Position numbers and translations under genes: made by a program
Assembly (NCBI GenBank): GCA_963784455.1
Contig: CAWARN010000005.1
Location: 142,005-206,004, forward strand
Direction: 5' to 3'
DNA from: an uncultured Acidobacteriota bacterium
Lineage (GTDB): Bacteria; Acidobacteriota; Vicinamibacteria; Vicinamibacterales; Fen-181
Length of the DNA: 64,000 nucleotides
The notes under the pieces: model-generated
What the model was told of the DNA's origin: nothing
Database searches by the model: none
The model's input: only the letters and a program-made list of their open reading frames with translations
Part shown: piece after piece, positions 1 to 36,541 of the stretch
Position numbering within the stretch: position 1 is the stretch's first letter
Layout: every line of letters starts with the position of its first letter

Positions 1-3000
1 GCGGCCGAGCGCGAACCAGCTCTCCTGCGGCAGGTGCCCCTGCGCGATCGCGACGAACGTGCAGAAACGAGCCTCGGACGCGAGCAGGTCGTAGTAACTG
101 GAGTCGCGGCGGCGATCGGCGACGTTGTAGCCGATCGACAGAAGGCGACGGGTCGCGTCGAACAGAAACGCCCACTCCACGTCGGCCAGGTCGGTCGACT
201 GCGCCGCGAGGCGAGTGATCAGAGCGATCCTGGCGCGGGCCGGGCCGGCCCGCTCGTCGTCGAGCGCCGCCAACTCGCGGAGCGAGGGGATTGACGTGAG
301 CCCGGGCAGGTGCGCCTGCGGCCTCGCTGGAGCAGGCAGCGTCGTCCACGGCGCCAGGTGCACGAGATCGTCGATGACGTCTCGGCACTGTCCCGCCAGC
401 GCCGAGGCCCAGGTGCTCGCCTCTCGGTCGGGCGTTGTGGCGAGCGCTGCCGCCAGCGCCCCACTCTCCGCCGCGAGGCGCTCGAGCACCAGCCGGCCTT
501 CCACGACGGTGTGCGGGGGCGAGGCGCACGCCGCGCCGACCGTCTTCTGGAGCCGGGTCATGGTGGCCGTCGGCGCCCCCTGAATGCTGTCGGCGACGAG
601 GTCGAATGTGTCGCGAAGACCCTCGAGTACACGCGCCGGCAGGATCGGCTCGCCTGCGAGGGCGATGAGACCCTGGCGCAGCGTCAGCAGGTGGCCCGCC
701 AGGTTACCGCTGTCGACCGACGAGATATAGCGCGGCTCGAGCGGGGCGAGCGACTGCGTGTCGTACCAGTTGTAGAAATGGCCGCGATGACGCTCCATTT
801 CGAGCATCGCCTGGAACGCCCGCGCGGTGCGATCCAGGAACCGGCCGGCCGAGATATAGCCGAAGTCGCACGCCGAGAGATTGGCCAGCAGCGCCAGCCC
901 CATGTTCGTCGGTGACGTGCGATGCGCCACCCCTTTGGCGGGCGCCTCCTGGAAGTTGTCCGGCGGCAGCCAGTGATCGTCTGGACCGACATAGGTGTCG
1001 AAGAAGCCCCAGGTCCGGCGGGCGACGCCGCTCAGGAAGCGGAGCTGGCCGCCCGTCAGCCGCGCGGCACGCCGCGTCAACGGACGGCTGATCTGCCAGG
1101 TGACGATCGGCGCAGTGAACCAGAGCAGCAGGACCGGCGCGGCAACGACGAGACCCGCTGGCCGGACGAGCGACAGGGCGACAGCGGTAGCGACCGCTAT
1201 CGATGGGCCGATCCACATCCTCGCCCACGCGGCGGCCAGAGTCTGCCGGGCCAGGAGTCCGTGATCGGCCGATGGCGTCCACTCGAGGAGCCGCCGGCGG
1301 GTGACGAGCAGGCGCACCGCGGTGCGCACGACGGCGGCCAGGCTGAAGTACGCTTCGTACGGGAGACACGCAAGCGTCAGCAACGCTTGCGCCAGTTGGT
1401 GCCCAATCGCGCGTCCGCTCCCCTCGAGATGCCGGGCGAGTCCGACATCGGCCGGCTTTCGCACGAGTCCAGGCAGCCACGCCGTCAGGGACGGAACCAC
1501 CAGGCAGCCCACGCCAGCGAGCGTCCACATCCAGGCAGGCGACAGCGCCGCCCATGCGACCAGGAACAGGCCGAGCAGCGCCGCCGGTGTGAGGCTGCGC
1601 CGCAGGTTGTCGAACAGCTTCCATCGGGAGAGCAGGGGCAGCGGGTTTCTGCTGCCGCGTCCGTCGCGGCCGGGAGGGCCGGGAAGCACCCAACGCCACA
1701 GCTGCCAGTCGCCTCGGATCCAGCGGTAGCGCCGCCGCACGTCCTCCTCGTAGCGGGACGGGTATTCCTGGTACACCTGCACGTCGGTCAACAGCCCCGA
1801 CCGCGCGTAGCAGCCTTCGAGAAGATCGTGGCTGAGGATTCGGTTCTCCGGGAAGCGCTCGCCGACCGCCGTGTCGAAGGCGTCCACGTCGTAGATCCCC
1901 TTGCCGATGAAGGAGCCTTCGGCGAACAGGTCCTGGTAGACGTCCGACACGACGCGGGTATAGGGGTCGATGCCCGGCTCGCTGGCCCAGAGCCGTGCGT
2001 ACCACGACCGGTTTGCGGCCGGGAGACTGACCGCGACGCGGGGCTGGAGGATACCGTATCCCTCGGTCACACGCTGCTGCCCGTCGTGCCGGGCGCGGTT
2101 GAGCGGGTGTGTCATCGCGCCGACGAGCAGGCGGGCCGCGTCGCGCGGCAGCTGCGTGTCCGCATCCAGCGTGATGACGTACTTCACCTGATCCAGCTTG
2201 CTCGCGTCCCCGACGACGCGAGAGAACTGGCCGCTGGACCGACCGCGAAGCAACGCATTCAGGTCGTCCAGCTTGCCTCGCTTGCGTTCGTACCCCATCC
2301 AGACGCCTTCCTCGGGATTCCAGCGCCGCGGGCGGTGGAAGAGGAAGAACGCGCCTTGCGGGTACTTCCTGTTCAGGTCGGCGATCAGACGCTCGGCGAG
2401 ACGCTCGACGGCATCGTCCTCCGGGAGGTTCTCCTGGGCCGCATCCGCCAGGTCCGTCAGCAGACCGAACGCGACGTGTTCGTCCCGATTGCCGAGAAAC
2501 CGCACCTCCAGCGCCTCGACCAGACGCTCCACGTCCTCCGCGCTCGTAATCAGGGTCGGCACCACGACGAGCGTCCGGGAGGCGCGCGGGATGCCGCCCG
2601 ACAGGTCCATCTTCGGCAGGGCCTTGGGACGCGCCAGCCAGGGCACGACGACGTTCACGACGGCCACCGCCACCTGGCTCGCGCAGAGCAGCAGGAGGAC
2701 CCCGACGAGACCGAGGAGCCAGCCCGGCGGGCCTGTCGCTCGAACCTCGAGGGTTAGCGCCGCCGCGGGCAGCACGGTGAGGGCGGCGATGCTCCCGAGA
2801 TAGAACAGCAGCGGGTGTGTGAGGCATGCGCGCCTTGCGCCGTCCGCGACGGCGACGCGCACGTGCACGGCCTGTTCGACCTGCGGAAGTCCCTCCCCCA
2901 CGAGGTAGAAGCCGACGTGCGCCGCCCTGGCATCGGGACCCGCGGCTGCTGCGGCCTGCTCGGCCAGGCCGATCGCCAGATGCGCCACCTCGCCTTCCGT

Positions 3001-10490: not shown

Positions 10491-10687
10491 ACAGCCTCGG
10501 TCTTCCTTCCGATGGATGGAGCCGGCCCACCGTTGCCACCCGGCGGTTCGGCGCTGGGAACGCTCGTCACGTCGGCGGCGGCGTGAAGCCGCAGGGTCGC
10601 AGCCGCGAGCCGCGAGTGCTCGCGCCGCTTCAGGCCGGCCTTTCGTCGCAGCTGGAATCTCGCCTTGTCGCCGTTCAATGCGGACAT
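10487..10687 (-). CDS. Hypothetical 66-aa basic protein, first gene of a coupled tricistron
   Basis: Internal ATG of ORF 10487..11005, with GGAG about 10 nt upstream. MSALNGDKARFQLRRKAGLKRREHSRLAAATLRLHAAADV... High GC3. Confidence 0.4.
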   Translation of the reverse strand: MSALNGDKARFQLRRKAGLKRREHSRLAAATLRLHAAADVTSVPSAEPPGGNGGPAPSIGRKTEAV

Positions 10688-10868
10688 CGTGGGTCGCTCC
10701 GTTTCCCGGGTTGCCGACAGGCCTGGCGCTGACAGTTCGTCGCGCCTGGCGCCGACACAACCACCCACTCGCATCATACGGTCGATGCGGTGCCGCTGTC
10801 TGTGCAGTTGTGCACAGATTGAGGCCCCAGGCGCCTCTATCATGGGAGCGGCGAGGATTGAGCAGTCA

Positions 10869-12866
10869 ATGGCGAAGCGACCATCGGACAGCGGGACGGC
10901 AGGGCGGGCCGGAGGCCCCTCCGCGGCTTCGAAGGGCTCGACCACGGTCGCGCCGAAGCGCCCGCGGCCGTGGTGGCTGGTCTTTGTCGTGGTCCTGCTC
11001 GCCAACTACCTGGGGATGCAGTTCCTCTTTCCAGAGCCGACCGCGATCACCATTCCGTATACCTTCTTCAAGAGCCAGATCGAGGCCGGCAATGTCGCGG
11101 ACGTCACCAGCGTCGGCGCGTCGATCGAGGGGAGCTTCAAGACCAAGACGACGTATCCCCCGCCAGTGTCCCCGGTGCCTCCAGGGGCACCGGGCACGGC
11201 ACCGGCGTCGCCTGCCGCCGGCCAGCCCAAGGCTCGCGAGTCGATGCAGTTCAAGACGCAGCGGCCCGCCTTCGCCGACCAGGATCTCGAGCGCCGCCTC
11301 GACGAGAAGGGTGTCGTCATCAAGGCCGTCGACGAGAACGCGTCATCCTTGTTCAAGCTGCTGGTCGGCTTCGGCCCGACCCTGCTGCTGATCGGCGCGT
11401 TCGTGCTGATGAGCCGCCGGGCGGCGGCGGCCGCCGGAGGCGGGCTCTTCTCGCTCGGGCGGAGTCGCGCCAAGCGCTACAGCGAGGAACAGCCGAAGGT
11501 CACCTTCGAGGACGTCGCGGGAATCGACGAGGCCGAGAACGAGTTGATCGAGATCGTCGACTTCCTGAAGAACCCCGCGAAGTACCAGCGGCTCGGCGGT
11601 ATGGTCCCGAAGGGCGTGCTGCTCATCGGCGCGCCCGGCACCGGCAAGACGCTGCTGGCGCGGGCGATTGCCGGGCAGGCCGGCGTGCCGTTCTTCAGCC
11701 TCAGCGCCTCCGAGTTCATCGAGATGATCGTGGGCGTCGGCGCCTCGCGCGTGCGGGACCTGTTCAAGCAGGCCAGGGAGGCGGCGCCGGCGATCATCTT
11801 CATCGACGAGCTGGACGCGATTGGCCGCACGAGAGGCAGCGGGGCGCAGCTCGGCGGCCACGATGAACGCGAACAGACCTTGAACCAGATCCTGACCGAG
11901 ATGGACGGCTTCGATTCCCGCGAAGGCGTCATCGTCCTGGCAGCCACCAACCGGGCCGATGTGCTCGACCAGGCGCTCCTGCGGCCGGGGCGCTTCGACC
12001 GGCGCGTCGTCGTTCAGCGTCCGGACCGCGCCGGTCGCGCCGCCATCCTCGCGGTGCACACCAAGAACGTGCCGCTCGCGCCGGACGTCTCGCTCGAACG
12101 CATCGCCGCCGAAACTCCCGGGCTGGTCGGTGCGGAATTGCGCAACCTGGTCAACGAGGCGGCCCTGCTGGCGGCTCGAAAGGACGGGAACACGGTGGGC
12201 GCCGAGGACTTTGCGGAAGCGCTGCAGAAGATCACCTTGGGGCCGGCGCGCAACATCCTGCTCATCCCGGCCGATCGCGAGCGCACCGCCTACCACGAAG
12301 CGGGGCACGCGCTCCTCGCGGTCCTGATGCCGGGCAGCGATCCGGTCCATCGCGTCTCGATCGTGCCGCGCGGCATGGCGCTCGGAGCGACCTACCTGCT
12401 GCCCGTCGACGATCGGACCAGCTACGCCGAAGACTACCTCCGGGCGCGCATCACCGGCGCGCTCGGTGGTCGGGCCGCGGAGAAGCTCGTCTATGGCGTG
12501 GCCACGACCGGAGCCGAGAGCGACCTTCAGCAGGTGACCGAGGTCGCCCGCCGCATGGTGTTGCGGTGGGGCATGAGCGAGAAGCTCGGGCCGGTCAGCT
12601 TCGTCACGCCCCAGGACGACGGCCTTCCGCCGGCGTTTCAGCACCAGCCCTACAGCGAGGCCACCTCCGAGGTGATCGACGCCGAGGTCCGGCGCATCGT
12701 CGAGGAGTGTCTTCGAGAGGCTGACCGCCTGCTGGCGGAGAACCGCCACAAACTCGACGCCCTCGCCCGCGCCTTGTTGAACGCCGAGTCGCTCAACGCG
12801 CAGGAGGTTCTCGAGGCCATCAACCCACGGGACTCTTCGGCGCCACCTCCACCGGCCCCGCCTTGA
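10869..12866 (+). CDS. ftsH: ATP-dependent zinc metalloprotease FtsH
   Basis: ORF 10665..12866. Walker [12 protein letters not shown] region, zinc site HEAGHAL, N-terminal [16 protein letters not shown]. Start placed at ATG 10869 (MAKRPSD); 10842 is also possible. Confidence 0.95.
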
Positions 12867-12963: not shown

Positions 12964-13377
12964 CTACGGGGTGGGCGCCTGCGCGACGAACCTCAGTGCC
13001 GTGCCGTTCGTGCAGTAGCGGAGCCCGGTCGGCGCCGGGCCGTCGTCGAAGACGTGGCCCAGGTGGCCGCCGCACCGGCGGCAGTGCATCTCCGTGCGAA
13101 CCATGCCGTGACGGCGGTCGACGGTGGTGTCGACCGCGTCCTCGATCGCCGCGTAGTAGCTCGGCCAGCCGGAGCCGCTGTTGTATTTGGCCTCGGATGA
13201 GAACAACGGCGCGCCGCAGCCGGCGCAGACGAACCGGCCGTCGCGGTGTTCGGCGTTGTACGGGTGCGACCACGCGGGTTCCGTGCCGTGCTGCCGCAGC
13301 ACGCGGTACTCGTCGGGCGTCAGCGACGCCCGCCACTCATCGTCGGTCCTGCGCACGCCATCAGCCGTGTCGTCCAT
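12964..13377 (-). CDS. msrB: Peptide-methionine (R)-S-oxide reductase MsrB
   Basis: ORF 137 aa. CAGCGAPLF ... CRRCGGHLGHVF ... GLRYCTNG (two CxxC zinc pairs plus the catalytic Cys region). Confidence 0.95.
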   Translation of the reverse strand: MDDTADGVRRTDDEWRASLTPDEYRVLRQHGTEPAWSHPYNAEHRDGRFVCAGCGAPLFSSEAKYNSGSGWPSYYAAIEDAVDTTVDRRHGMVRTEMHCRRCGGHLGHVFDDGPAPTGLRYCTNGTALRFVAQAPTP

Positions 13378-13410
13378 ATCGCGTTCTCTGCCGGAAGCCG
13401 AGAGCCGTTT

Positions 13411-14850: not shown

Positions 14851-15868
14851 TCAGCGCTGGCGGAACGCGGTCAGCACGTTGCGGGCCGCCCGAAACGGGC
14901 TCAGACGCCCGCTCCGGACCTCGGCCCGCATGGCGGCCAGGTGATCGGTGACGAGGCGGTCGCGCCTGATGTCCTGCTCGAGACCCAGCAGGATGGCCTC
15001 TCGCATCCACTCGAGCGCCTGCTCCTCGCGGAGGCGCGCGAACGAGCCGTTCGACTCGACGAGCGCGCGGTGCTCGAGGACGACGTTCCAGAATCTCAGC
15101 CACGCCCTTGCGCTCGAGCGCCGAGCAGGTGACGACGCGAGACGTCCACCCGTCGCCGGAGGCGGGGAAGAGGTGCAGCGCGTTCTCGTAGTCCTGGCGC
15201 GCGCGCTCCGCACGCCGGCGGTTGTCGCCGTCCGCCTTGTTGATCGCGATGAGGTCGGTCATCTCGAGGATGCCGCGCTTCATCCCCTGCAGCTCGTCCC
15301 CGGCGCCCGCGAGCATCAGCAGGAGGAAGAAGTCGGTCATCGATCGGACCGTGGTCTCGGACTGTCCGACGCCGACGGTCTCGACGAAGACGTTCTGATA
15401 GCCGGCCGCCTCGCAGAGCAGCATCGCCTCGCGCGTCCGGCGCGCCACGCCGCCGAGGTGCCCGCGAGACGGGGACGGGCGGATGAAGGCCCGTTCGTCG
15501 GTGGCGAGCCGCTCCATGCGTGTCTTGTCGCCGAGAATGCTGCCGCCCGAGACGGGGCTGGATGGATCCACCGAGAGCACCGCCACGGTTTCGCCGAGCT
15601 CGCGCGTGAGGTGGGTGCCGAGCGCTTCGATGAAGCTGCTCTTGCCGACTCCTGGAACGCCCGTGATGCCGACACGGCGGGCGCGGCCTGAGTGCGGCAG
15701 GCAGGCCTCGATGACCTCGGACGCGATATCGACGTCGGAGGGCAGGTCGCTCTCGACGAGCGTAATCGCGCGGGCGAGCACGCTGCGGTCGCCGGCGCGG
15801 ATCCCGGCCACGTAGTCGGCAGCCGGGAGCCGCTGACGCCGGCGCGTGGCTGGCGAGGTGTGAGCCAT
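14851..15868 (-). pseudogene. meaB: Methylmalonyl-CoA mutase accessory GTPase MeaB/ArgK, one frame break as sequenced
   Basis: N-part in ORF 13361..16063 from ATG 15868 (GITGVPGVGKSSFIEALG, SVDPSSPVSGGSILGDKTRM, INKADGDN). C-part is the tail of ORF 14851..15213 (WNVVLEHRALVESNG...). One extra base near 15088..15097 (minus strand gagATTCtgg). 1018 nt minus 1 = 339 codons. Confidence 0.85.
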
Positions 15869-17878: not shown

Positions 17879-20020
<2,142 letters not shown>

Positions 20021-20024
<4 letters not shown>

Positions 20025-21415
20025 GCTGCATCTCCTACGTGCGACTGCAGTCTGGCGGTCTCACTGCGATCGCGTCGCCAGCTGCCAGCTACTGTCCCTT
20101 GTCCCAACCTGTCCTGCCACATGGTGAGCGTCTCCACCGCATTCGACCGCGCGTGGACGAAGCCGGCGACGCCGGCGGCGGTGAGCGCGTCGACGTTGTC
20201 CTTCGGCAGGCCGGCGACGAGGACCGGCACCCGGACCTGCGGCACGATCGCGCGCGCCAGGTCGAGGTAGTCTGCGTCGGCGCTGCAGAGCACTACGAGG
20301 TCGGCATCCGATAACGTGTCGGACTGGGCGATGTCGAAGCCGGCGCAGCCGAAGAAATTGAGGCAGAACGCGGCGCGCGCCTTTCGCATCCTCAGGTCGC
20401 CGCGTTCGAGCAGCAGGACGAGCGGGACGTGCCCGGTTGCGGCGGCGTGCCGCTCGGTGCGGAGACGAATCGCCTCGAAGGGCTCGGCCAGGCGCCAGCC
20501 TTCGCTACGCGTTCCGGCCGCGTCCAGCCGGCGCTCCAGCAGGTTCGGGTAGTTGTTGGTGCCGACGAGCACGCGGCGCCGTTCGGCGACGGCCTGCTCC
20601 TTCGATGCGCGGGCCGCTGCGAGCGCGGCGTCGGCGGCGCCCGACCCTTGGTAGGCCGCCCAGCCGCCCACCCCTTCAATTGCCTGGAAGAGCGTCCACG
20701 CCTCGGCCGAGAGCGCGTCGGTCAGCGCCTCGACATAGTACGAGCCGGCACCCGGGTCCTGCACCTTGTCGAGATGGCTCTCCTCGCGGAGGACGTGCTG
20801 GACGTTCTCGGCGAGGTGCGCGTCGAACCCGCACGGCGGAATTGTGAGCGAGTCGCAGCCGCCGACGATCGCCGACAGCGCCTCGGTGGTGACCCGCAGC
20901 ATGTTGACGTGCGGGTCGTAGAGCGTCTGGTTCTCACCGGCGGTCCGCGCGTGAATGCGCACGTCCCCGTCGGCGCCGAACGCCTCGGCCACTCCCTTCC
21001 ACAACAGCCGGGCCGACCGCAGCTTTGCCATCTCCATGAAGTGGTTGGACCCGACGGTGAAGGCGAGCGTCGTGACCGTCCGACCGGCGGCCAGCGCATC
21101 GGCCCCCTGGGCCAGGACGTACGCGACTTCCTGGACGGCGGTGGCGCCGAGTTCGTGCGCGTCGATCGCGCTGGCATCGGCGGCGGGCTCCGCATCGGGC
21201 GCGGCCATCGTCCACGTGCCGGCGGCGTTCACGACCGGCGGGCGCGGCCTCACGTGCTCGGACCGGTAGTAGGGCCGGACGGCAATCCCTTCGTCGGTCT
21301 TCCAGACCAGCCGCTTCTCGTAATCGGCGCCCTTCAGATCTCTCGCGATCTGGGCCTCCCACTCGGCGGTTGTCACCGGCGGGAATGCAGCGGGTGGGTC
21401 GAACGTGTGAGCCAT
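20021..21415 (-). CDS. mutA: Methylmalonyl-CoA mutase small (beta) subunit
   Basis: ORF 464 aa, MCM-fold without the B12 His motif ([36 protein letters not shown]...). Its stop overlaps the mutB start by 4 nt. Confidence 0.8.
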
Positions 21416-21427
21416 GGCTCAGATTCC

Positions 21428-21455
21428 CTGAGCCCTGGGCCTTGAGCCCTGAGCC
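21428..21455 (-). repeat. Heptanucleotide tandem array, 4 units (GGCTCAR on the coding strand)
   Basis: Plus strand CTGAGCC CTGGGCC TTGAGCC CTGAGCC, filling the spacer between the epimerase stop (21455) and the mutA start (21415). Confidence 0.85.
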
Positions 21456-21919
21456 TACGCTTCCTGCACCACTTCAACGAGGAACCCGAACGGCGCCTCT
21501 TCCCGCGACTTCGGATGCACGAAGAACACCGTCGTCCCGCGCGACCCCCTGCGCGGCGCCTTGTCGATGACGTTGAAGCCCCTCGCCTTCATGTCGTCGA
21601 AGGCGCGGTGGATGTCGGCCACGCGGAACGCGACGTGGGCGAACCCTCCGCGCCCGCCGTTGCGATCGATGAGCTTCTGAACGGGGGAGTCGGCCGTCAG
21701 CGGCTCCAACAACTGGACCAGGTTGGGGCCGCCGCCGATCCGAAGCAGCACCTCCCGGACCTGGTCCCCTCCCAGGACGTCCTCGCGGTGGATCTCGGTG
21801 AATCCGAGCAGCGTGTACGCGCCAACCTGCGATTCGAGTTCGCCCGTGCGGACCGCGATGGCGAGGTGGTCGATGCAGACGAAACCGACGACGTCCTGCG
21901 TCTCATTCGAATTCGACAA
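21455..21919 (-). CDS. mce: Methylmalonyl-CoA epimerase (VOC/glyoxalase fold)
   Basis: ORF 154 aa. IDHLAIAV...LEPL...SPVQKLIDRNGGRGGFAHVAFRVADI...GTTVFFVHPKS, in a methylmalonyl-CoA gene context. Confidence 0.85.
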   Translation of the reverse strand: MSNSNETQDVVGFVCIDHLAIAVRTGELESQVGAYTLLGFTEIHREDVLGGDQVREVLLRIGGGPNLVQLLEPLTADSPVQKLIDRNGGRGGFAHVAFRVADIHRAFDDMKARGFNVIDKAPRRGSRGTTVFFVHPKSREEAPFGFLVEVVQEA

Positions 21920-22307
21920 GGACCTGTCCTCCTGTGACGCTGTCGCCGACCTGCACGTTCACCGCGCGCACCCTGCCGGCCGCGGGCGCGGTGATGTCGG
22001 TCTCCATCTTCATCGCCTCGAGCACGAGCACGCCGTCGCCCACCTGGATCTGCTGGCCGACCTGCGCGGCGATCCGCACGACGATACCCGAGATCGGGCT
22101 CCGGACGACCTTCTCTTCGTTGACCGGCGGACGTGAAGCCGCGCCGGCGCCTGGCGCGGCCGGCGGCACCGCCGCCGGGGCCTGCGCAGGCACGCGCGCC
22201 GGGGACATCGGGAAGTAGCCGCCGACGCCGTAGATCGGATGCTCCGGCGCCGCGACCTCGACGTCGACCTCGTACGTCTTTCCGTCAACCGTCAGCTTCA
22301 GTTTCAC
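21903..22307 (-). CDS. Biotin carboxyl-carrier subunit (1.3S-type, biotinyl/lipoyl domain)
   Basis: ORF 134 aa. Pro/Ala linker then VRSPISGIVV...VLVLEAMKMETDITAP (biotinylation motif AMKM). Confidence 0.85.
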   Translation of the reverse strand: MKLKLTVDGKTYEVDVEVAAPEHPIYGVGGYFPMSPARVPAQAPAAVPPAAPGAGAASRPPVNEEKVVRSPISGIVVRIAAQVGQQIQVGDGVLVLEAMKMETDITAPAAGRVRAVNVQVGDSVTGGQVLVEFE

Positions 22308-22329
22308 ACGTGTCTCCCCTCGTCGCCGC

Positions 22330-22710
22330 CTATCGATGAACGGCCCATCGATGAGAAGCCATCACCGAGACCCGGCCCTGCTGGGCCCACGCCTCGGACG
22401 CCAGCAATCTGACCTGTCGGACGTGCGCCCGCTCGCCCAGGAACGCCGCGACGGCGGCGGCAATCACGGCCATCGTCTCGTCCGTGACCTCGCCGTGCGG
22501 CTCGGGCGGGCCGGCCGGCGCCGCAGCGGGCTTGGCCGGCACGACCGCCGGGACCGGCGGAGGCGGAGCCGCCGCCACGAGATTCCCGACCGCCGCGTCG
22601 CGCGCAGCCTCGAGCCTGGCGATTCGCTCCTCGAGTTCGGCAATCCGCGCGAGCAGTTCCGCAGTGCGAGTGCCGGAGCGTGCCTGAAAGCGAGCCTTCT
22701 TGTCCGTCAT
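22330..22710 (-). CDS. Small accessory subunit-like protein of biotin-dependent carboxyltransferase clusters (OadG/AccE-like), hypothetical
   Basis: ORF 126 aa. Coiled N-terminus, Pro/Ala linker, then EVTDETMAVIAAAVAAFLG...WAQQGR tail. The assignment rests mainly on position between the 12S and 1.3S genes. Confidence 0.5.
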   Translation of the reverse strand: MTDKKARFQARSGTRTAELLARIAELEERIARLEAARDAAVGNLVAAAPPPPVPAVVPAKPAAAPAGPPEPHGEVTDETMAVIAAAVAAFLGERAHVRQVRLLASEAWAQQGRVSVMASHRWAVHR

Positions 22711-22738
22711 GCCTCCACCAGCCGTTCGTGAGTCTGCG

Positions 22739-22766
22739 CTGAGCCTTGAGCCCTGAGCCCTGAGCC
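22739..22766 (-). repeat. Heptanucleotide tandem array, 4 units (GGCTCAR on the coding strand)
   Basis: Plus strand CTGAGCC TTGAGCC CTGAGCC CTGAGCC, between the 12S stop (22771) and the OadG-like start (22710). Confidence 0.85.
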
Positions 22767-22770
22767 ATCC

Positions 22771-24342
22771 CTACAGCGGCATCAACCCGTGCTTCTTCGG
22801 AGGCCTCAGCTCGCGCTTCGTGTGCAGCGCCTCGAGCGCCTGCGCCAGGTGCCGCCGCGTGTCAGCCGGGTCGATGATGTCGTCGACCAGCCTTCGACCG
22901 GCCGCCACGAACGGGTTGGCGAAATGGCTGCGGTACTCCTCGATCAGCTCCTTGCGCCGGGCCGCCTTGTTCTCGGCCTTGTCGATCTCGTTGCGGAACA
23001 CGATCTCGGCCGCGCCCTCCGCACCCATCACCGCGACTTCGGCTGTCGGCCACGCGTAGACGCGGTCTGCGCCGAGGTCCTTGCCGCACATCGCCAGGTA
23101 GGCGCCGCCGTAGGCCTTGCGCAGGATGACCGTGATCTTCGGCACCGTGGTGGCCGAGTAGGCGAACAGCATCTTGGCACCGTGCCGGATGATCCCGCCG
23201 TACTCCTGCTGCACGCCCGGCAGGAACCCCGGCACGTCGACGAGGGTGACCAGCGGCGTGTTGAACGCGTTGCAGAACCGGATGAACCGCGCCGCCTTGT
23301 TCGACGCGTTGATGTCGAGTGCGCCCGCCAGGGAACTCGGCTGGTTGGCCACGATGCCGATCGACCGGCCCAGGATGCGCGCAAAGCCGATGACGATGTT
23401 GGGCGCGAAGCCGGGCTGGATTTCCAGGAAGTCGCCGACGTCCACGACCGCAGCGATCACACGGCGGACGTCGTACGGCTGCTTCCCCTCGGCGGGCACG
23501 ATGGCGCGCAGGTCAGGATTCGGATCGACGTTCCCGTCCGACGGGAGGACCGGCGGGTCCTCCAGGTTGTTGTTCGGCATGAAGCTCAGGAGCCGCCGGC
23601 AGAGGAACACCGCCTCGTTGTCGTCGGCCGCCACCAGGTGGACGACGCCCGAGTGCGTCATGTGCGCGTCCGCGCCGCCGAGCTGCTCGGCGGTCACGAC
23701 CTCGCCGGTCACCTGCTTGATGACCTGCGGCCCGGTGATGAACATCTGCGCCTGCCGCGTCTGGATGATGAAGTCGGTCAGCGCCGGGCTGTACGCGGCG
23801 CCTCCCGCGCACGGGCCGCAGATGAGCGAAATCTGCGGGACCGCCCCCGACAGCTTCGTGTTCGTGTAGAACACCTTGCCGTAGCCCGAGAGGCTGTCGA
23901 TGCCTTCCTGCACCCTCGCGCCGCCGGAGTCGTTGATGAAGACGAACGGCGAGCCGGTCTTCAGCGACATCTCCATCGTGTCGGCGATCTTCGTCGAGTG
24001 CACCTCGCCGGCCGCGCCGCCGCCCACGGTGAAGTCCTGGCTGGCGAGGTGGACGAGGCGGCCGGAGATGGCCGCGGACCCCGTGATGACGCCGTCGGCC
24101 GGGAACTCCTTGTCCGCCATGCCGAACAGCGTGGCGCGGTGCCGCGCGAACAGCCCCGATTCCTGGAAGCTCCCCGGATCGACCAGCGCGTTCACCCGCT
24201 CGCGGGCGCCGAGCTTGCCGGCCTTGTGCTGCTTCTCGAGCCGCTCGTGGCCGCCGCCCAGCATCAGCTCGGCGCGCTTCTTCGCCAGCTCCTTCAGCCG
24301 CCCCTCCATCGTCGTCACCGTCTTCGCGTCAGCCTTTGTCAT
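22771..24342 (-). CDS. Methylmalonyl-CoA carboxyltransferase 12S subunit / propionyl-CoA carboxylase beta-type carboxyltransferase
   Basis: ORF 523 aa. Both CoA carboxyltransferase halves are present (SQDFTVGGGAAGEVHSTKI..., PQISLICGPCAGGAAYSPALTDF, GIVANQPSSLAGALDINASNKAARFIRFCNAFNTPLVTLVDVPGFLPG). Confidence 0.9.
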   Translation of the reverse strand: MTKADAKTVTTMEGRLKELAKKRAELMLGGGHERLEKQHKAGKLGARERVNALVDPGSFQESGLFARHRATLFGMADKEFPADGVITGSAAISGRLVHLASQDFTVGGGAAGEVHSTKIADTMEMSLKTGSPFVFINDSGGARVQEGIDSLSGYGKVFYTNTKLSGAVPQISLICGPCAGGAAYSPALTDFIIQTRQAQMFITGPQVIKQVTGEVVTAEQLGGADAHMTHSGVVHLVAADDNEAVFLCRRLLSFMPNNNLEDPPVLPSDGNVDPNPDLRAIVPAEGKQPYDVRRVIAAVVDVGDFLEIQPGFAPNIVIGFARILGRSIGIVANQPSSLAGALDINASNKAARFIRFCNAFNTPLVTLVDVPGFLPGVQQEYGGIIRHGAKMLFAYSATTVPKITVILRKAYGGAYLAMCGKDLGADRVYAWPTAEVAVMGAEGAAEIVFRNEIDKAENKAARRKELIEEYRSHFANPFVAAGRRLVDDIIDPADTRRHLAQALEALHTKRELRPPKKHGLMPL

Positions 24343-24351
24343 CGTCTTTCC

Positions 24352-24395
24352 TTGAGCCCTGAGCCTTGAGCCTTTGCGCCTTGAGTCCGTGAGCG
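24352..24395 (-). repeat. Heptanucleotide tandem array, 3 perfect plus about 3 degenerate units (GGCTCAR on the coding strand)
   Basis: Plus strand TTGAGCC CTGAGCC TTGAGCC, then TTTGCGCC TTGAGTC CGTGAGC. It lies between the 5S stop (24402) and the 12S start (24342). Confidence 0.75.
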
Positions 24396-24401
24396 GCCTG
24401 T

Positions 24402-25924
24402 CTACGCCGGCGTCACCGTGACCTTGTGCGTGCGGCCGCCGAGCTTCACGTCGTAGGTGATCTCCGAGCGCACCGGCCCCCGGCCGTCGTCCGGCGTCGC
24501 GGCTGCCGGCCGCCGAGCCCTTCGCCGCCGGCTTCGCGGCCGCCGGTCCTGCCGACGTTCTGCGGCCCTTCGTGCCGGCGCGCGAAGAACTTCGTCGCCA
24601 CCTGCGGGAACATCGCGTAGGTGAGGACGTCCTCGTCCGTCCCGTCGCATCCGTCGAGGGCGATGGCCTGCGCCCGGAGGTCTTCCCACTCGGGCTTCAG
24701 CAGGCTGGCGGGCCTGCACGTGATCGGCTCCTTGCGGGCGTGCGTCTGCGCCAGTGCGACGACCTCCGGATCGCGCGGCGCGATCGTGTCGCCGTAGTAG
24801 CCGAGCATCAGGTCGGCGAACTCGCCCGTCATGACCTTGTAGCGGCCCATCATCACGTTGAACACGGCCTGCGTGCCGACGATCTGGCTCGACGGCGTCA
24901 CCAGCGGCGGGAAGCCCGCGTCGCGGCGGACGTGCGGGACCTCCGCCAGCACCTCCTTGATCCGGTCCGCGGCCCCCTGCTGTTTCAGCTGGCTCTCCAT
25001 GTTCGAGATCATCCCGCCCGGAATCTGCGAGTTGAAAAGCTCGGTCTCCACCCCCGTGATGTTCGACAGGAACTCCGAGTAGCGCGGCCGGATGCGCGCG
25101 AAGTGGTCCTTGATCGACAGCAGCCGCGCCTTGTCGAGGGCGGTCCGGTAGGGCGTTCCATCGAGCATCTCGACAAGCGACTCCGTCGGGTTGTGGCCGG
25201 GGCCGAGGCTCATGGAGCTGATGGCGGTGTCCACGCAGTCGGCGCCGGCTTCAATCGCCTTCATGAGGCTGACGAGCGTGACGCCGGTCGTGGCATGCAC
25301 GTGGACGTGGACGCGGACCTCCGCGCCGAGCGCCGCCTTCAGCGCGCGCACCAGATCGTAGGCCGGCTGCGGCTTCAGCAGCGCCGCCATGTCCTTGATG
25401 CAGATGGAATCGGCGCCGAGCTCGCGCAGCTGCACCGCCAGCTTCACGAACCCTTCGATGGTGTGGACCGGGCTCGTGGTGTAGGAGATCGTCCCCTGCG
25501 CGTGCTTGCCGGTCCGACGGACCGCCCTGATGGCGCGCTCGAGGTTGCGGATGTCGTTCAGGGCGTCGAAGACCCGGAACACGTCGACGCCGTTGTCTGC
25601 AGCCTTCTGCACGAACCGGTCGACCACGCCATCCTCGTAGTGGCGGTAGCCCACCAGGTTCTGGCCGCGCAACAGCATCTGGAGCGGCGTCTTCGGCATC
25701 CGCGCCTTGAACGTGCGAAGCCGCTCCCACGGATCCTCGTTGAGGAACCGGATGCACGAGTCGAACGTCGCGCCTCCCCAGCACTCGAGCGACCAGAAGC
25801 CGGCGTGGTCCAGGTCCTCGCACGCCGGGAGCATGTCCTCGGTCGCCATGCGCGTCGCCATCAGGCTCTGGTGGGCGTCCCGCAGGATGAGTTCGGTGAC
25901 GTCGATGGTTCTCGGCTCAGGCAT
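24402..25924 (-). pseudogene. Transcarboxylase 5S subunit / oxaloacetate decarboxylase alpha-type carboxyltransferase (pyruvate carboxyltransferase domain), C-terminal tail in another frame
   Basis: ORF 24446..25924 (LRDAHQSL...WGGATFD...KDMAALL...HVHVHATTG). The expected C-terminal tail AAATPDDGRGPVRSEITYDVKLGGRTHKVTVTPA is in ORF 24402..24719. Either one 1-nt deletion or two 1-nt insertions between about 24480 and 24560 would explain this. Confidence 0.85.
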
Positions 25925-26124
25925 GGCAGGTACTTGTCAGCGGCCAATCGAAACGGATTGACGACGGGAGGCGGACAGGAAGGCAACCCGGCTCACACGA
26001 GGCCCCGCCCAGGGGGAGCGTGTCGACGGGTGACGGCCCGGCGGTATTCAGAAGGGAATTGTACCCCGGCGTCCAGGCGCCTGCCAAGCCGACCATGGTA
26101 GTCTGTGCCGTTCGCGGACGATGA

Positions 26125-29413
<3,289 letters not shown>

Positions 29414-33323: not shown

Positions 33324-33394
33324 CACGCTGCCACGTGATTGACGCGGTTCTGCTCCCGGTCGCCAAGTCGCGAGCCGGGATGCGCGAGGCGGCC

Positions 33395-34853
33395 ATGCCC
33401 GCTCTCTCCATCCTGCTGACGGGGGCCACCGGCTATGTCGGTGGCCTCCTCCTTCCTCTGCTCGAATCACGCGGCCACCGCGTCAGGTGCCTGGCGCGGC
33501 GCACCGACCGACTGCGGCAGCGAGCCGATCCCCGAACAGAGATCGTCGAAGGTGATGTGCGGGACCCGGCGTCGCTCTCCCTGGCGATGGCCGGCATCGA
33601 TGTTGCGGTCTACCTGATCCACTCGATGGGCTCTGCGGGGTCGTTCGAGGAGGCGGACCGGGAGGCGGCGCGGCGGTTCGGGGCGGCGGCTGCCGCGGCC
33701 GGGCTCCGCCGCATCGTCTATCTCGGGGGCCTCGGCGACGGCCGCGACGATTCTGTCGCCTCACCTCCGGAGCCGGCGCGAGACGGGCGAGGTGCTCCGC
33801 CAGTCGGGCGTGCCGGTCATCGAGCTGAGGGCGTCGATCGTCATCGGGGCCGGCAGCCTGTCGTTCGAGATGGTGCGATCGCTCGTCGAGCGGCTGCCCG
33901 TGATGATCTGCCCGAGATGGGTGGCGGTGAAGGCGCAGCCGATTGCCGTCGGGGACGTGCTGGCGTACCTGGCGGCGGCGGCCGAAGACGAGGCGAGCGG
34001 AAGCGTCGTGTGCGAGATCGGCGGGCCCGATGTGGTGTCGTATGGCGACATCATGCGGGAGTACGCCCGGCAGCGCGGCCTGAAGCGCCTGTTGATTCCC
34101 GTTCCGCTGTTGACGCCGCGGCTGTCGAGTCTGTGGCTTCGGCTCGTGACACCGCTCTATGCGAGCGTCGGCCGCTGGCTCATCGACGGTATGCGCAATC
34201 AGACGATCGTCACCGACGTCGAGCCCGCGCGCCGCTACGCGCTGAAACCGCTGAGGCTGAAGCAGGCGGTCACCGAGGCCATCCGCCAGCGGGGCGAGCG
34301 CGTGGACGTCCTTCTGGCCGAGGCCGCGGGTCCGGACGCCGAAGCCGCGCTGACCGCGCTCAGGGCCTCGGGCTGCGTGCTGGACCACCGCGAGTCGGAC
34401 GTCGAGGCGAGCCCGTCGCGCGCGTTCGACCCGGTGAGGACGATCGGCGGGGCGAACGGCTACTACTATGGCAACCTGCTCTGGGCGCTTCGTGCGTGGT
34501 TCGACCGCCTGATCGGCGGAATCGGGATGCGGCGGGGCCGGCGCGACCCGGACACCTGCGTTGTGGGAGACGCCGTGGATTTCTGGCGCGTCGCGGCGTT
34601 CGAACCAGACCGGCGCCTGACGCTGACCGCCGAAATGAAAATGCCCGGCCGCGCCTGGCTGCAGTTCGATGTCGTGCCGGGGAACGACGGGGAACACACC
34701 CGCGTTCGACAGACCGCGCTCTTCGACCCTCGAGGCCTGTTGGGGCTGCTCTATTGGGCGGCGATGCTGCCGGCGCACGCCTTCATCTTCAGGGGCATGC
34801 TGCGCGCCATCGCCAGACGCGCCGCTTACCACACGCCGGGCAGCAGCCGGTAG
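33395..34853 (+). pseudogene. NAD(P)-binding SDR-fold protein with C-terminal DUF2867-like domain, one frame break as sequenced
   Basis: N-part of ORF 33335..35104 (ILLTGATGYVGGLLLPLLESRGHRV...VYLIHSM). C-part ORF 33792..34853 (LSPHLRSRRETGEVLRQSGVPVIELRAS...). One extra base at 33747..33756 (gacGATTCtg). 1459 nt minus 1 = 486 codons. Confidence 0.8.
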
Positions 34854-35566
34854 CGCACGCGGCCCGCATACTCCGCGTACCCTTCCAGTTCGGCACGGAG
34901 CGTGCGGTCCTCGAGAGCGGTGCGCACGACGACCACCACTCCAATCGCGGCGGCGATGGTCAGCGCCCACAGCGAGCCCAAGGCGAGAGCGACCCCGGGC
35001 ATGTGCACGATCGAGGCAAGGTAGCCCGGGTGCCGGACCAGCCGGTACGGTCCAGTGTCCACCACGTGGTGACCCCGGTCCCGCTGGATCCGGATGATGG
35101 CTGAAAAGAATCGGTTTGCGGCGACCGCCCGATTCGACAGCGCGCCGCCGAGCCCTATGAGCAGCAAGCCGGCCGCGTTCCACGCCGCGGACATCTGCGG
35201 GCTCCAGTGGAACCGCCGGTCGAAACCGCACGCGAGGAGGAGCGCCAGGGGGCCGACGCCACCGATGACGGCCACGAGCGGCTTGTCCCAGCGCTTCGCG
35301 TCTGCCGGAGGCCGCCGGCGCTCGGCCACCAAGTCGGGATGGCGGCCGAGGATCACCATGTAGCCGGCGAGCATCACGGTCATCAGACCCAGGTAGGCCC
35401 ACGCCGCGGGCCAGGCGAATGTGCCGGCGCACGCAAACAGCATCAGCCCGTAGGCGACCGTCGTCAGGGCAAGACGGATCCAATCGGCCAGGAGACCGCC
35501 GCTCGGCGCCCTTCCCTGGCCGGTGGCCGTCTGGTCTCCGCCGGGGCCTTCTGCCAGCACCGTCAC
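34826..35566 (-). CDS. Isoprenylcysteine carboxyl methyltransferase (ICMT/PEMT) family membrane protein
   Basis: ORF 246 aa, multi-TM, C-terminal signature VVDTGPYRLVRHPGYLASI...RTALEDRTLRAELEGYAEYAGRVRYRLLPGVW. The GTG start overlaps the upstream stop (GTGA). Confidence 0.8.
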   Translation of the reverse strand: MTVLAEGPGGDQTATGQGRAPSGGLLADWIRLALTTVAYGLMLFACAGTFAWPAAWAYLGLMTVMLAGYMVILGRHPDLVAERRRPPADAKRWDKPLVAVIGGVGPLALLLACGFDRRFHWSPQMSAAWNAAGLLLIGLGGALSNRAVAANRFFSAIIRIQRDRGHHVVDTGPYRLVRHPGYLASIVHMPGVALALGSLWALTIAAAIGVVVVVRTALEDRTLRAELEGYAEYAGRVRYRLLPGVW

Positions 35567-36541
35567 TTCTTCTTGCTCGCCTCTTCGAGCGAGGTGACGA
35601 GGAACGCGATCTCCTCGTCGCTGAGCTTCTTCTTCACCGTCTGGAGCATCGTCTTGAAGTGCGCGATCTCGTCGGGCTGTGCGGGGAACCCGGTGTTTCC
35701 CTTGGGGCCCGTGCTGTGAATCAGCGCCTTTCCGTCACCGTCGAGGAACGCGAACCACGGCAGGCCCTGTTCCTTGTCGATATAGCGCTTCTCGATCTCC
35801 TTCGCGCCCTTCGCACGGTCGTAGTCGAGCTTCGCGAAGACGAATTCCCTGGCGAGCAGCGGTGCGACATCCTTGGACGCCATCCAGGCGCCCAGCCTGT
35901 GGCAAAACGTTCACCACGGGGCCGTGAACCAGAGAAAGACGGTACTTGCCGTCCTTCTTCGCCTGGCTCAGGGCGGCCCTGAATGGCGGATCGGCATCGG
36001 GCGCCGGCGCCTGGTGTTTCTCGAGGAACGCGGCGAATTTCTTCGGATCGACGGTGGCGGGGTCGTCGCCCGCCATCTCCGTCGCCGACGCGTTCGCCAG
36101 GACCTTGCCGTGTGCGTCCAGGACGGTAAAGTAAGGCAGGGCTCCGGGCGCCGGCTTCGCGCCGTACGCCGCGGCCACGTCCAAGTTCCTGTCGATGCGG
36201 CCGACGTCCACGTAGACGAGCTTGTACTCATCCGAGAAGAACCGCGGCGTCGTGATTTCCGGCGACCGCTGCACCTGCGTGAACTTCGTCGAGCGCTCGT
36301 CGTCGTTCGCGCCCCAGTTGATCAGGACGCGAATGTCGCTCTCTTCGGCGCCCGCGGTGGCGGTGGCGATCAGCGCCTTCGCGTCGGCCGTCTCGCTGTA
36401 GATCTTGCGCGGCGCCTGCGGCTGACGAGGCGCCGCCGTCGGCGTCGCCGGCACGCTCTGTTGCCGCGGCGGTGCCTGCTGCGGCGGCGGAGGCGCCTGG
36501 CCGCTCATCGCCAGGAGGAGCGGCAGGAAATGAAGAACCAT
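35563..36541 (-). pseudogene. Secreted two-domain thioredoxin-fold protein; candidate selenoprotein (TGA at the first position of U-x-x-C). One frame break as sequenced
   Basis: ORF 35735..36541 (MVLHFLPLLLAMSG..., first Trx-like domain, ...SQAKKDGK) joins after one extra base at 35941..35946 (plus-strand GGTAC) to TVFLWFTAPW-TGA-TFCHRLGAWMASKDV..., which runs into ORF 35563..35883. TGA at 35911..35913. 979 nt minus 1 = 326 codons. Confidence 0.65.
35874..35894 (-). promoter_or_regulatory. SECIS-like stem-loop 17 nt 3' of the in-frame UGA
   Basis: mRNA UGGGCGCC-UGGAU-GGCGUCCA: an 8-bp stem (one G.U pair) with a 5-nt apical loop containing GG. The loop starts 25 nt after the UGA. Confidence 0.45.

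Follow-up and report, generated by a model that had tools for sequence, protein, structure and literature searches.

A thioredoxin-like gene in which TGA stands at the first cysteine position of a CxxC motif raises the question of whether that codon is a stop, a sequencing error or a site of selenocysteine insertion. The gene concerned lies on the minus strand at 36541..35563 of a 64,000-nucleotide stretch of DNA, here called the window, and a sequence-only reading had proposed that it encodes a UxxC selenoprotein. Among bacterial selenoproteins no class is commoner than that of the UxxC thioredoxin-fold proteins. The comparisons described below make it very probable that the TGA, at 35913..35911, is a real and conserved selenocysteine codon of a gene of soil and sediment Acidobacteriota.

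Gene and domain layout

The gene starts with the ATG at 36541 and ends with a TGA terminator at 35565..35563, spanning 325 codons plus one extra base. Joining 36541..35942 to 35940..35563 on the minus strand, and so removing one extra C (see below), reconstructs a protein of 325 residues to which collinear full-length matches were found in 64 loci. The frame reads ...TVFLWFTAPW-TGA-TFCHRLGAWMASKDV... and, beyond the TGA at 35913..35911 (residue 210), enters the ORF at 35563..35883 without meeting a stop; strand, TGA position and in-frame continuation are thus all as originally described. The TGA replaces the first Cys codon of the W-C-x-x-C motif of the second of two domains, and the resulting redox motif, U-T-F-C with UGA at its first position, occupies 35913..35902.

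At the N-terminus (36491..36541) is a probable signal peptide (MVLHFLPLLLAMSGQA...), hydrophobic and followed by a Pro/Gln-rich linker. This N-terminus is kept among orthologues, and it is at residues 1-25 that the AlphaFold2 model of the homologue P0029 is of low confidence. Judged from the hydrophobic stretch alone, the protein is probably exported.

Sequences, alignments and the AlphaFold2 model all give domain 1 (36017..36409, minus strand) a thioredoxin-like fold, the active site of which has degenerated. Its active-site position in the window reads NWGANDDERS (36319..36290), where Planctomycetota homologues have WCGWC aligned and most Acidobacteriota copies are left with the second Cys alone. 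The core of domain 2 (35740..35980, residues 188-267) matches Pfam Thioredoxin_7 (PF13899) at 60.1 bits against a gathering threshold of 27, in keeping with the thioredoxin fold first suggested for it, and the threshold of PF13098 (Thioredoxin_2) is passed too (33.9 bits against 27). The core includes a G-L-P-W-F loop (35766..35752) where thioredoxins usually have their cis-proline, and its Pro is invariant in the alignment. The model of P0029, a Cys homologue, has a pLDDT of 90.8 and contains two thioredoxin folds. In its second fold a strand at 178-184 is followed by C188/C191, located at the start of the helix 189-198, and P239 is invariant; U210/C213 and GLPWF of the window align with C188/C191 and with the P239 loop, respectively.

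Conservation of the TGA codon

Loci were retrieved using domain 1 peptide patterns, so that the sample is unbiased as to the TGA region. TGA occupies the aligned codon in all 64 of them, nine from Acidobacteriota genomes and 55 from contigs of metagenomes, with protein identities of 50-90%, and in every one the second domain continues in frame past it; the closest relatives are around 88-90% identical to the window in DNA. The second thioredoxin domain is kept in 52 of 52 full-length orthologues. Distant homologues have APWCGWCHRLGAWM at the TGA position: Cys is found there in P0028, P0029, P0048 and P0105, which carry APWC[GSV]WCHRL, so that an APW-TGA-xWCH common to the 64 loci is set against APWC[GSV]WCH in the Cys homologues. 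A close relative of the TGA forms, L072, is also a Cys form. The proposal of a UxxC thioredoxin-fold protein is well supported by this alignment.

Differences at the three codon positions are distributed alike downstream (0.25/0.23/0.41) and upstream (0.30/0.25/0.42) of the TGA, and the region after it is therefore translated in that frame. The real terminators of the gene are TAG in 34 cases, TGA in 11 and TAA in seven, whereas the internal stop is TGA in 64 of 64. The presence of TGA among the real terminators indicates that these organisms still use it as a stop.

The probable SECIS region

Just downstream of the TGA lies a near-invariant block of 30 nucleotides (35878..35907, minus strand) in which synonymous sites are frozen among orthologues. 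It reads TGG TGC CAY AGG CTG GGC GCC TGG ATG GCG, the first TGG being TTT in the window. Codon entropy is zero at only eight of the 158 degenerate codon columns that are conserved, and six of the eight fall at codons +3 to +12 after the TGA. At the block, 50 of 50 sequences have the minority Arg codon AGG, which makes up about 15% of the Arg codons in the rest of these genes. The Cys form L072 departs from the block at four of the 30 positions, three times synonymously. It has CGG, GGG and GCG at frozen sites, and in it each of the two hairpins described below is weaker by around 11-12 kcal/mol. Synonymous freezing in TGA forms that is lost in the Cys form is the pattern expected of a SECIS element.

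Two hairpins can be drawn in the region. Hairpin A (35874..35894), put forward in the sequence-only reading, has an 8-bp stem (UGGGCGCC / loop UGGAU / GGCGUCCA) with its loop 25-29 nt past the A of the UGA. It does exist at 35894..35874, as the centre of the minimum-free-energy fold of the window sequence. Folding that single sequence (35850..35920, 69% G+C) recovers the hairpin with a stability no better than chance (z = -1.19, with 24 of 200 shuffles as good), so that it gains meaning from comparative data only. Each of its seven core pairs is preserved by 89-100% of 56 distinct orthologues, with GC-to-GU changes; hairpin A dominates the folding ensemble in 51 of the 56 and is the structure selected by RNAalifold. 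Hairpin B (35879..35903; GCCA-YAGGC / loop UGGGC / GCCUG-(GA bulge)-UGGC) overlaps hairpin A, and the two are mutually exclusive. Here 99.6% of cells are paired and a C-G to U-G change occurs in 14 sequences. In hairpin B, moreover, the invariant AGG codon is base-paired throughout, which explains its invariance. The G-rich apical loops of the candidate hairpins lie 17-29 nt after the UGA.

Among the 56 distinct orthologues no compensatory base-pair changes were seen for either hairpin, and covariation shuffles carry no information for a block that varies so little. An Rfam scan of 35500..36100 at E-values of up to 10 gave only two chance matches and no matching model. We infer that either hairpin A or hairpin B is the SECIS, the two being equally conserved with no covariation to separate them. 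Hairpin A, likened to a SECIS in the sequence-only reading, is thus conserved and dominant in the ensemble but is one of two candidates.

As in the SECIS of E. coli fdhF, a candidate hairpin within the coding sequence follows directly on the UGA and has G residues in its apical loop. The upper stem of hairpin B begins at nt 15 and its loop contains G22/G23, which we take to be the same distance from the UGA as in the fdhF minimal SECIS. Unlike the fdhF element, to which there is no sequence similarity, the region has two mutually exclusive conserved hairpins as putative sites of SelB binding.

The extra base and the integrity of the window copy

The upstream ORF, from the ATG at 36541, is one base out of frame with the downstream part, so that one frame correction is needed, as had been anticipated. 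The cause is a single extra C, specific to the window, in the CC doublet at 35941..35942 on the minus strand (K-Y-[c]-V-F-L): the window has 'aag tac c gtc' and the relatives L001, L010, L011 and L012 have 'aag tac gtc'. KxVF[LV]WF lies in a single frame in all 64 loci from the protein searches. A garbled nanopore contig that was fetched separately (L073) is the one exception.

A second 1-nt insertion found only in the window (around position 33752) duplicates its neighbouring base and breaks the adjacent, unrelated NmrA/DUF2867 gene; the insertion-free reading there is GACAGATC, and the gene is intact, at 485 aa, in L074. Given this similar insertion in a neighbouring gene, faulty assembly is the probable source of the extra C at 35941/35942, which would then be outside the biology. 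The window copy is otherwise well preserved, differing at one of 49 near-invariant residues where other orthologues differ at zero to three, and the orthologue L017 has Tyr at the residue in question. As sequenced the copy is frameshifted, and a full-length product from it is a prediction.

Gene calls, neighbourhood and selenocysteine machinery

It had been expected that annotation would record the C-terminal part of the protein and miss the redox motif. In public assemblies of relatives the tail of about 106 aa is indeed called, but it does not stand alone, for a head of about 206 aa is called too (206 aa and 106 aa in L074, for example). The redox motif is hidden by these split gene calls, and the function is therefore invisible in protein databases.

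Close relatives (L001 and L074) are syntenic with the window, and the contigs of L072, L073, L075 and P0038 have unrelated neighbours. Conserved gene neighbourhood was considered as a functional clue and rejected, the neighbours in distant relatives being unrelated. No sel, ccm or dsbD genes lie near the gene in the loci compared. Likewise, neither the 64-kb window nor the fetched flanks, of about 20 kb per related genome, contain selA, selB, selD or tRNA-Sec; ARAGORN returned zero tRNAs in the window and in 22 related loci, and no SelA-, SelB- or SelD-like proteins were seen in GC3-based ORF translations of the whole window. A search of the window for other in-frame TGAs with coding signal on both sides gave only the gene boundary at 14853. 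For the phylum Acidobacteria, both the Sec-decoding trait and selenoproteins have been reported (PMC1794560, Table 2).

Proposed mechanism and alternative explanations

With considerable confidence we read the locus as a UGA-recoded UxxC selenoprotein gene, encoding a probably exported oxidoreductase of two thioredoxin folds in which selenocysteine insertion would be directed by a SECIS, the extra C being an assembly error. Domain 1 has lost its CxxC, and domain 2 would carry a selenocysteine-x-x-cysteine (U-T-F-C) redox centre. During translation the UGA at 35913..35911 would be bypassed as a stop: an RNA hairpin within about 40 nt of coding sequence after it, the bacterial SECIS, would recruit SelB and Sec-tRNA(Sec), and selenocysteine would be inserted. 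The full-length protein may then work outside the cytoplasm, as an oxidoreductase of the thiol-disulfide (selenenylsulfide) kind. We infer the SelB/Sec decoding, the export and the enzymatic role.

Other explanations concern either the window copy or the codon itself. The family could be one of real selenoproteins and the window copy a recent pseudogene, its extra C genuine and no protein made from it. The frameshift does stand in the given sequence and the TGG-to-TTT change in the UxWC motif of this copy is unusual; against this, the copy is otherwise intact, as the count of near-invariant residues and the Tyr of L017 attest, and the second window-only insertion in the adjacent gene is better explained by assembly error than by two independent fresh inactivations. 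We regard a pseudogene as unlikely. That the TGA itself stands, through faulty base-calling or assembly, for the TGC or TGT of an ordinary CxxC gene, a caveat entered at the outset, might be suggested by the single-base indel errors of the window and by the existence of Cys forms of the family. A miscall is excluded, as nearly as such a thing can be, by the TGA of all 64 orthologues, assembled independently from many samples and technologies, and the Cys of distant homologues; the window moreover has the SECIS-type frozen block that is absent from the Cys form.

The UGA might instead terminate translation, with domain 2 made as a separate polypeptide from the AUG at 35883..35881. Gene callers give exactly that split, and the AUG is conserved. 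Its conservation is explained by its coding for the Met of GAWM, and such a start leaves in-frame conservation of xWCH[RK][LQ]GAW between UGA and AUG, matching the CxxC region of the Cys homologues, to be accounted for; a domain starting at MASKDV would, on the model, lack beta-strand 1 and the redox motif, and the internal stop is always TGA where true terminators vary. Two polypeptides are on these grounds barely credible. Recoding of the UGA as something other than Sec, such as Cys or Ser through an opal-suppressing tRNA-Sec-like or allo-tRNA like those known from Deltaproteobacteria and Acidobacteria, is highly improbable. Possible unusual suppressor tRNAs have been reported in Acidobacteria, and SelB-like-dependent insertion of Cys at UGA in other phyla, but selC* was found in other phyla and not in Acidobacteria (PMC5389517). 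The position is that of the nucleophilic Cys of CxxC, the classic Sec site, the conserved hairpin block directly after the UGA is a signature of SelB and SECIS, and TGA still ends some of these genes in the normal way.

Relationship to known systems

Among the closest known systems are the UxxC thioredoxin-fold bacterial selenoproteins listed by Zhang, Gladyshev and colleagues, in particular the 'thiol:disulfide interchange protein' (PF13098 Thioredoxin_2, UxxC; representative WP_011366075.1) (PMC9312934; PMC13188914, Table 1). Shared with it are Sec in place of the first Cys of a thioredoxin-fold CxxC, the existence of Cys homologues and a SECIS just downstream within the coding sequence. Set against that listing, the present protein differs in that its best Pfam match is Thioredoxin_7 and in that its active domain comes after a probable signal peptide and a second thioredoxin-like domain, which is degenerate. 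A Thioredoxin_7 domain in a predicted selenoprotein is shared with the Trx7/PDZ domain-containing selenoprotein (NCBIfam NF041199, Pfam Thioredoxin_7, CxxU; PMC13188914). There, however, Sec is second in the motif and is accompanied by a PDZ domain, in contrast to UxxC and a tandem thioredoxin-like domain here. An NCBIfam scan of the protein returned neither NF041199 nor SaoT (NF040730). TsoB (NF045694), the sole match among NCBIfam selenoprotein models, scores 24.4 bits where the cut-off is 805, and the match covers a single domain.

Outside selenoproteins, there are weak matches to NCBIfam DsbH and Pfam Thioredox_DsbH; the former, the DsbH disulfide reductase model NF043050, scores 24.6 bits against a cut-off of 190, a likeness in fold only. 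The best solved structural match is the Xylella 'disulphide isomerase' 3fk8 (active domain: target TM 0.85, rmsd 2.5 Å), with DsbD gamma (TM 0.65-0.71) and DsbH (TM 0.50) ranking lower. All three are periplasmic oxidoreductases of Thioredoxin_7/DsbH type, are Cys-based, are single domains or parts of DsbD, and have only 14-20% sequence identity. In PDI b'-a' too, a redox-inactive thioredoxin-like domain precedes an active one, and Foldseek matches cover both domains. The PDI superpositions are poor (rmsd 13-18 Å), so that the two domains are not oriented alike; PDI proteins are, besides, Cys proteins of the eukaryotic ER, and the resemblance is in architecture only.

The gene is of an ordinary bacterial selenoprotein kind and changes no concept. 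Tentatively, it may represent an uncatalogued family of exported tandem-thioredoxin selenoproteins with the motif PW-U-x-W-C, split between two ORFs in the public gene calls that were examined and so far known only from Vicinamibacterales-like Acidobacteriota of soil and sediment, in which the two-hairpin SECIS could be a conformational switch; we would place this proposal somewhat short of even. An apparently exported selenoprotein would be added to the repertoire of these widespread, little-studied bacteria, and use of selenium by them is implied. A rule combining APW-TGA-xWCH with the frozen 30-nt block would mend dozens of database entries. Finally, L057 and L072 offer a clean natural pairing of a Sec and a Cys form, in which the SECIS block has decayed along with the loss of Sec, and which is useful for studies of Sec-to-Cys conversion.

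Gene layout and protein architecture

The ORF starts with an ATG at 36541 (minus strand), and its translation has a hydrophobic N-terminus, which suggests that the product may be exported; a linker rich in Pro and Gln comes next, and then a thioredoxin-like domain. The protein-like reading switches frame at 'aag tac c gtc' (35947..35938, minus strand), and the next frame runs through VFLWFTAPW, a TGA (35913..35911) and TFCHRLGAWMASKDV... and meets no other stop until the TGA at 35565..35563 (minus strand). Deleting one C from the doublet 35942/35941 gives a protein of 325 residues, in which Pfam Thioredoxin_7 matches residues 188-267 (60.1 bits, cut-off 27) and the internal TGA falls at residue 210, the expected place of the first Cys of W-C-x-x-C. 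An earlier, sequence-only reading is thus borne out in placing an in-frame TGA at this Cys, in finding the frame open beyond it and in calling for a single frame correction.

The AlphaFold2 model of P0029, a homologue with Cys at this position (48 aligned homologues; pLDDT 90.8, pTM 0.83), comprises two thioredoxin folds; C188/C191 sit where helix 189-198 begins, following strand 178-184. Among solved structures the best match is 3fk8, a 'disulphide isomerase' of Xylella (target TM 0.85), with DsbD-gamma and DsbH ranking lower; the tandem-domain b'-a' fragments of PDI match only loosely. Domain 1 keeps the thioredoxin fold and has lost the CxxC motif: WCGWC in Planctomycetota homologues, it is DxxC in most Acidobacteriota copies and DxxS in a few others and in the window (NWGANDDERS, 36290..36319). 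Since the motif is reduced to DxxS there, redox activity is predicted for domain 2 only.

Conservation of the TGA codon

In a protein search, the closest homologues of the repaired protein (55-87% identity) are only about 200-213 residues long, with 64% query cover, and all 12 retrieved end in ...VF[LV]WF[ST]APW. More distant homologues extend over the full length, with APWC[GSV]WCHRL at the point where the closest ones stop. Orthologous DNA was collected with domain 1 peptide patterns, so that sampling was unbiased as to the TGA region. Species-representative genomes yielded nine loci, all from Acidobacteriota MAGs (one labelled Vicinamibacterales), and metagenome contigs a further 62, of which 55 reach the motif. 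TGA occupies the site in all 64 loci covering it, and in each xWCH[RK][LQ]GAWMA and the conserved second domain follow in the same frame, with no frame correction needed. This orthologue comparison, proposed along with the sequence-only reading, gives TGA throughout, with Cys in the more distant homologues, and rules out the TGC-to-TGA miscall that had then been entertained.

The true terminators of the orthologous genes are varied (TAG 34, TGA 11, TAA 7), so TGA continues to serve these organisms as an ordinary stop, whereas the internal stop alone is fixed as TGA. The three codon positions differ by 0.25/0.23/0.41 in the part downstream of the TGA and by 0.30/0.25/0.42 in the part upstream, a matching pattern which places the downstream part under the same protein-coding constraint in the same frame. 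Both this and the conservation of the stretch from the TGA up to the first AUG, which constitutes the redox motif itself, make it very unlikely that translation truly ends at the TGA and that the tail is initiated on its own.

Candidate SECIS element

Nucleotides 7-36, counted after the U of UGA, are nearly invariant among 56 distinct orthologous sequences, reading TGG TGC CAY AGG CTG GGC GCC TGG ATG GCG. Aligned by codon, 52 distinct full-length genes give 158 columns whose amino acid is both conserved and degenerate; codon entropy is zero in only eight, six of which lie at codons +3..+12 after the TGA. The frozen sites carry TGC, GGC, GCC and GCG (each 52/52), AGG (50/50; at other sites of these genes it makes up about 15% of the Arg codons) and TCC (38/38; the commonest Ser codon elsewhere is TCG). 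The three lowest codon-entropy sliding windows of the gene fall within +3..+15, and the eight lowest all overlap the stretch directly after the TGA.

The 8-bp stem with loop UGGAU described in the sequence-only reading exists (35894..35874), and the minimum-free-energy fold is built around it. Taken singly, this sequence folds no better than its shuffled versions do (z = -1.19; 68.7% G+C), so that the description of its sequence is accurate yet by itself proves little. Across orthologues, this hairpin (A; nt 20-40, minus strand) keeps its seven core pairs in 89-100% of the sequences, two of these pairs showing GC-to-GU changes. It accounts for the invariant third positions G21, C24, G36 and C39, and in 51 of 56 sequences it is the dominant structure of the predicted ensemble. 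An overlapping and mutually exclusive hairpin (B; nt 11-35, 35903..35879, minus strand; GCCA-YAGGC, loop UGGGC, GCCUG, GA bulge, UGGC) has 99.6% of cells paired, C-G being replaced by U-G in 14 sequences, and only here is the invariant AGG codon paired. Its upper stem and loop G22/G23 are probably spaced from the UGA as they are in the minimal SECIS of E. coli fdhF. No compensatory change was found for either hairpin in the 56 sequences, because the block hardly varies, and Rfam gave no match for the candidate SECIS region. Location of a SECIS within 35907..35874 is well supported, with hairpins A and B as candidate structures.

A natural control is provided by the gene for P0029 (locus L072, 2292..3221), whose nearest relative is a Sec form (locus L057, 17..~950). 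The latter keeps the TGA and the frozen block. L072 carries TGC in place of the Sec codon and reads TGG TGC GGG TGG TGC CAT CGG CTG GGG GCG TGG ATG ACG: the amino-acid motif is almost unchanged, synonymous sites have drifted (CGG, GGG, GCG) and each candidate hairpin has lost about 11-12 kcal/mol. Selection at the nucleotide level thus appears tied to the TGA, as would be expected for a SECIS, and the pair suggests that Sec was converted to Cys in L072 and that a remnant of its SECIS is decaying.

Decoding of the UGA and genomic surroundings

Unusual, possibly suppressor tRNAs have been described in Acidobacteria (PMC5389517), and recoding of the UGA as something other than Sec is therefore kept as a minor rival. 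Against it, the SECIS-type block and the position of the catalytic Cys argue for Sec. The phylum is reported to contain selenoproteins (PMC1794560, Table 2); no Sec machinery was found in the 64-kb window or the fetched flanks of relatives. With TGA in 64/64 loci, Cys homologues and a frozen block after the TGA, the feature is real and its initial interpretation as a candidate UxxC thioredoxin-like selenoprotein is correct.

The gene neighbourhood is conserved among close relatives only and offers no functional clue. A cluster at 17879..25936 (minus strand) seems, when its ORF translations are inspected by eye, to code for an epimerase-like protein and a biotin carrier together with subunits of methylmalonyl-CoA mutase and of carboxyltransferase/oxaloacetate decarboxylase type. 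At 12964..13410 lies an MsrB-like gene, which has Cys, not Sec.

Catalogues and annotation

UxxC thioredoxin-fold proteins are the commonest prokaryotic selenoprotein class (PMC9312934). Current catalogues include a UxxC 'thiol:disulfide interchange protein' (PF13098) and a CxxU family of Thioredoxin_7/PDZ type; a tandem-thioredoxin family with PW-U-x-W-C is absent from them (PMC9312934; PMC13188914, Table 1). No NCBIfam selenoprotein model matches above cut-off (best TsoB, 24 bits vs 805). The family is possibly an uncatalogued one within a well-known kind.

Public gene calls cut the orthologues into ORFs of ~206 and ~106 residues, named, where at all, 'hypothetical protein' or 'thioredoxin 1'. 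In relatives L074 (10001..10621 and 10649..10969) and L075 (10001..10618 and 10646..10990) the first ORF, of ~206 residues, ends at the TGA and the second, of 106-114, starts at the Met of GAWM and has no Pfam hit on record. The tail is therefore called separately, as had been foreseen, but not alone, since the head is called too.

Insertions in the window

Compared with four relatives (L001, L010, L011, L012), the gene has indels in multiples of three in its low-complexity N-terminus and one 1-nt insertion, at 35942/35941. The adjacent NmrA/DUF2867 gene (NmrA/NAD-binding plus DUF2867; 33335..34853, plus strand), intact at 485 residues in the syntenic L074, is broken by another window-only 1-nt insertion at about 33752, a duplicated neighbouring base (GACAGAATC against GACAG-ATC or GACAG-CTC in L010 and L001). 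This probably indicates assembly-type indel errors, and the two insertions agree with the single-base errors suspected from the sequence. The extra C is best explained as an assembly indel, although it may be a very recent real mutation; the copy is not decayed, since it departs from relatives at one of 49 near-invariant residues (other orthologues, 0-3).

That residue is W212F in UxWC. Codon 212 (35905..35907) is TTT where 54 of 55 other distinct aligned orthologous sequences have TGG, the sole other exception being L017 with TAC (Tyr); the change requires two adjacent substitutions and removes two G whose pairing could lengthen the lower stem of hairpin A.

Other window genes also look split. 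A GH2 beta-galactosidase gene (26125..29413, plus strand) has overlapping ORF segments, 26125..29145 and 28346..29413, in different frames, which suggests another frameshift; its syntenic counterpart in L074 is likewise split in gene calls. In the orthologue L073 (3001..3885, protein P0036; contig_3179_np1212) the motif region is garbled: an A6 run lies upstream and the SECIS block is longer by about 5 nt. The gene call crosses the motif in another frame (KNRVRVVLGPLVKVVPCWK) and returns at LGAWM, reflecting either assembly error or a decayed copy.
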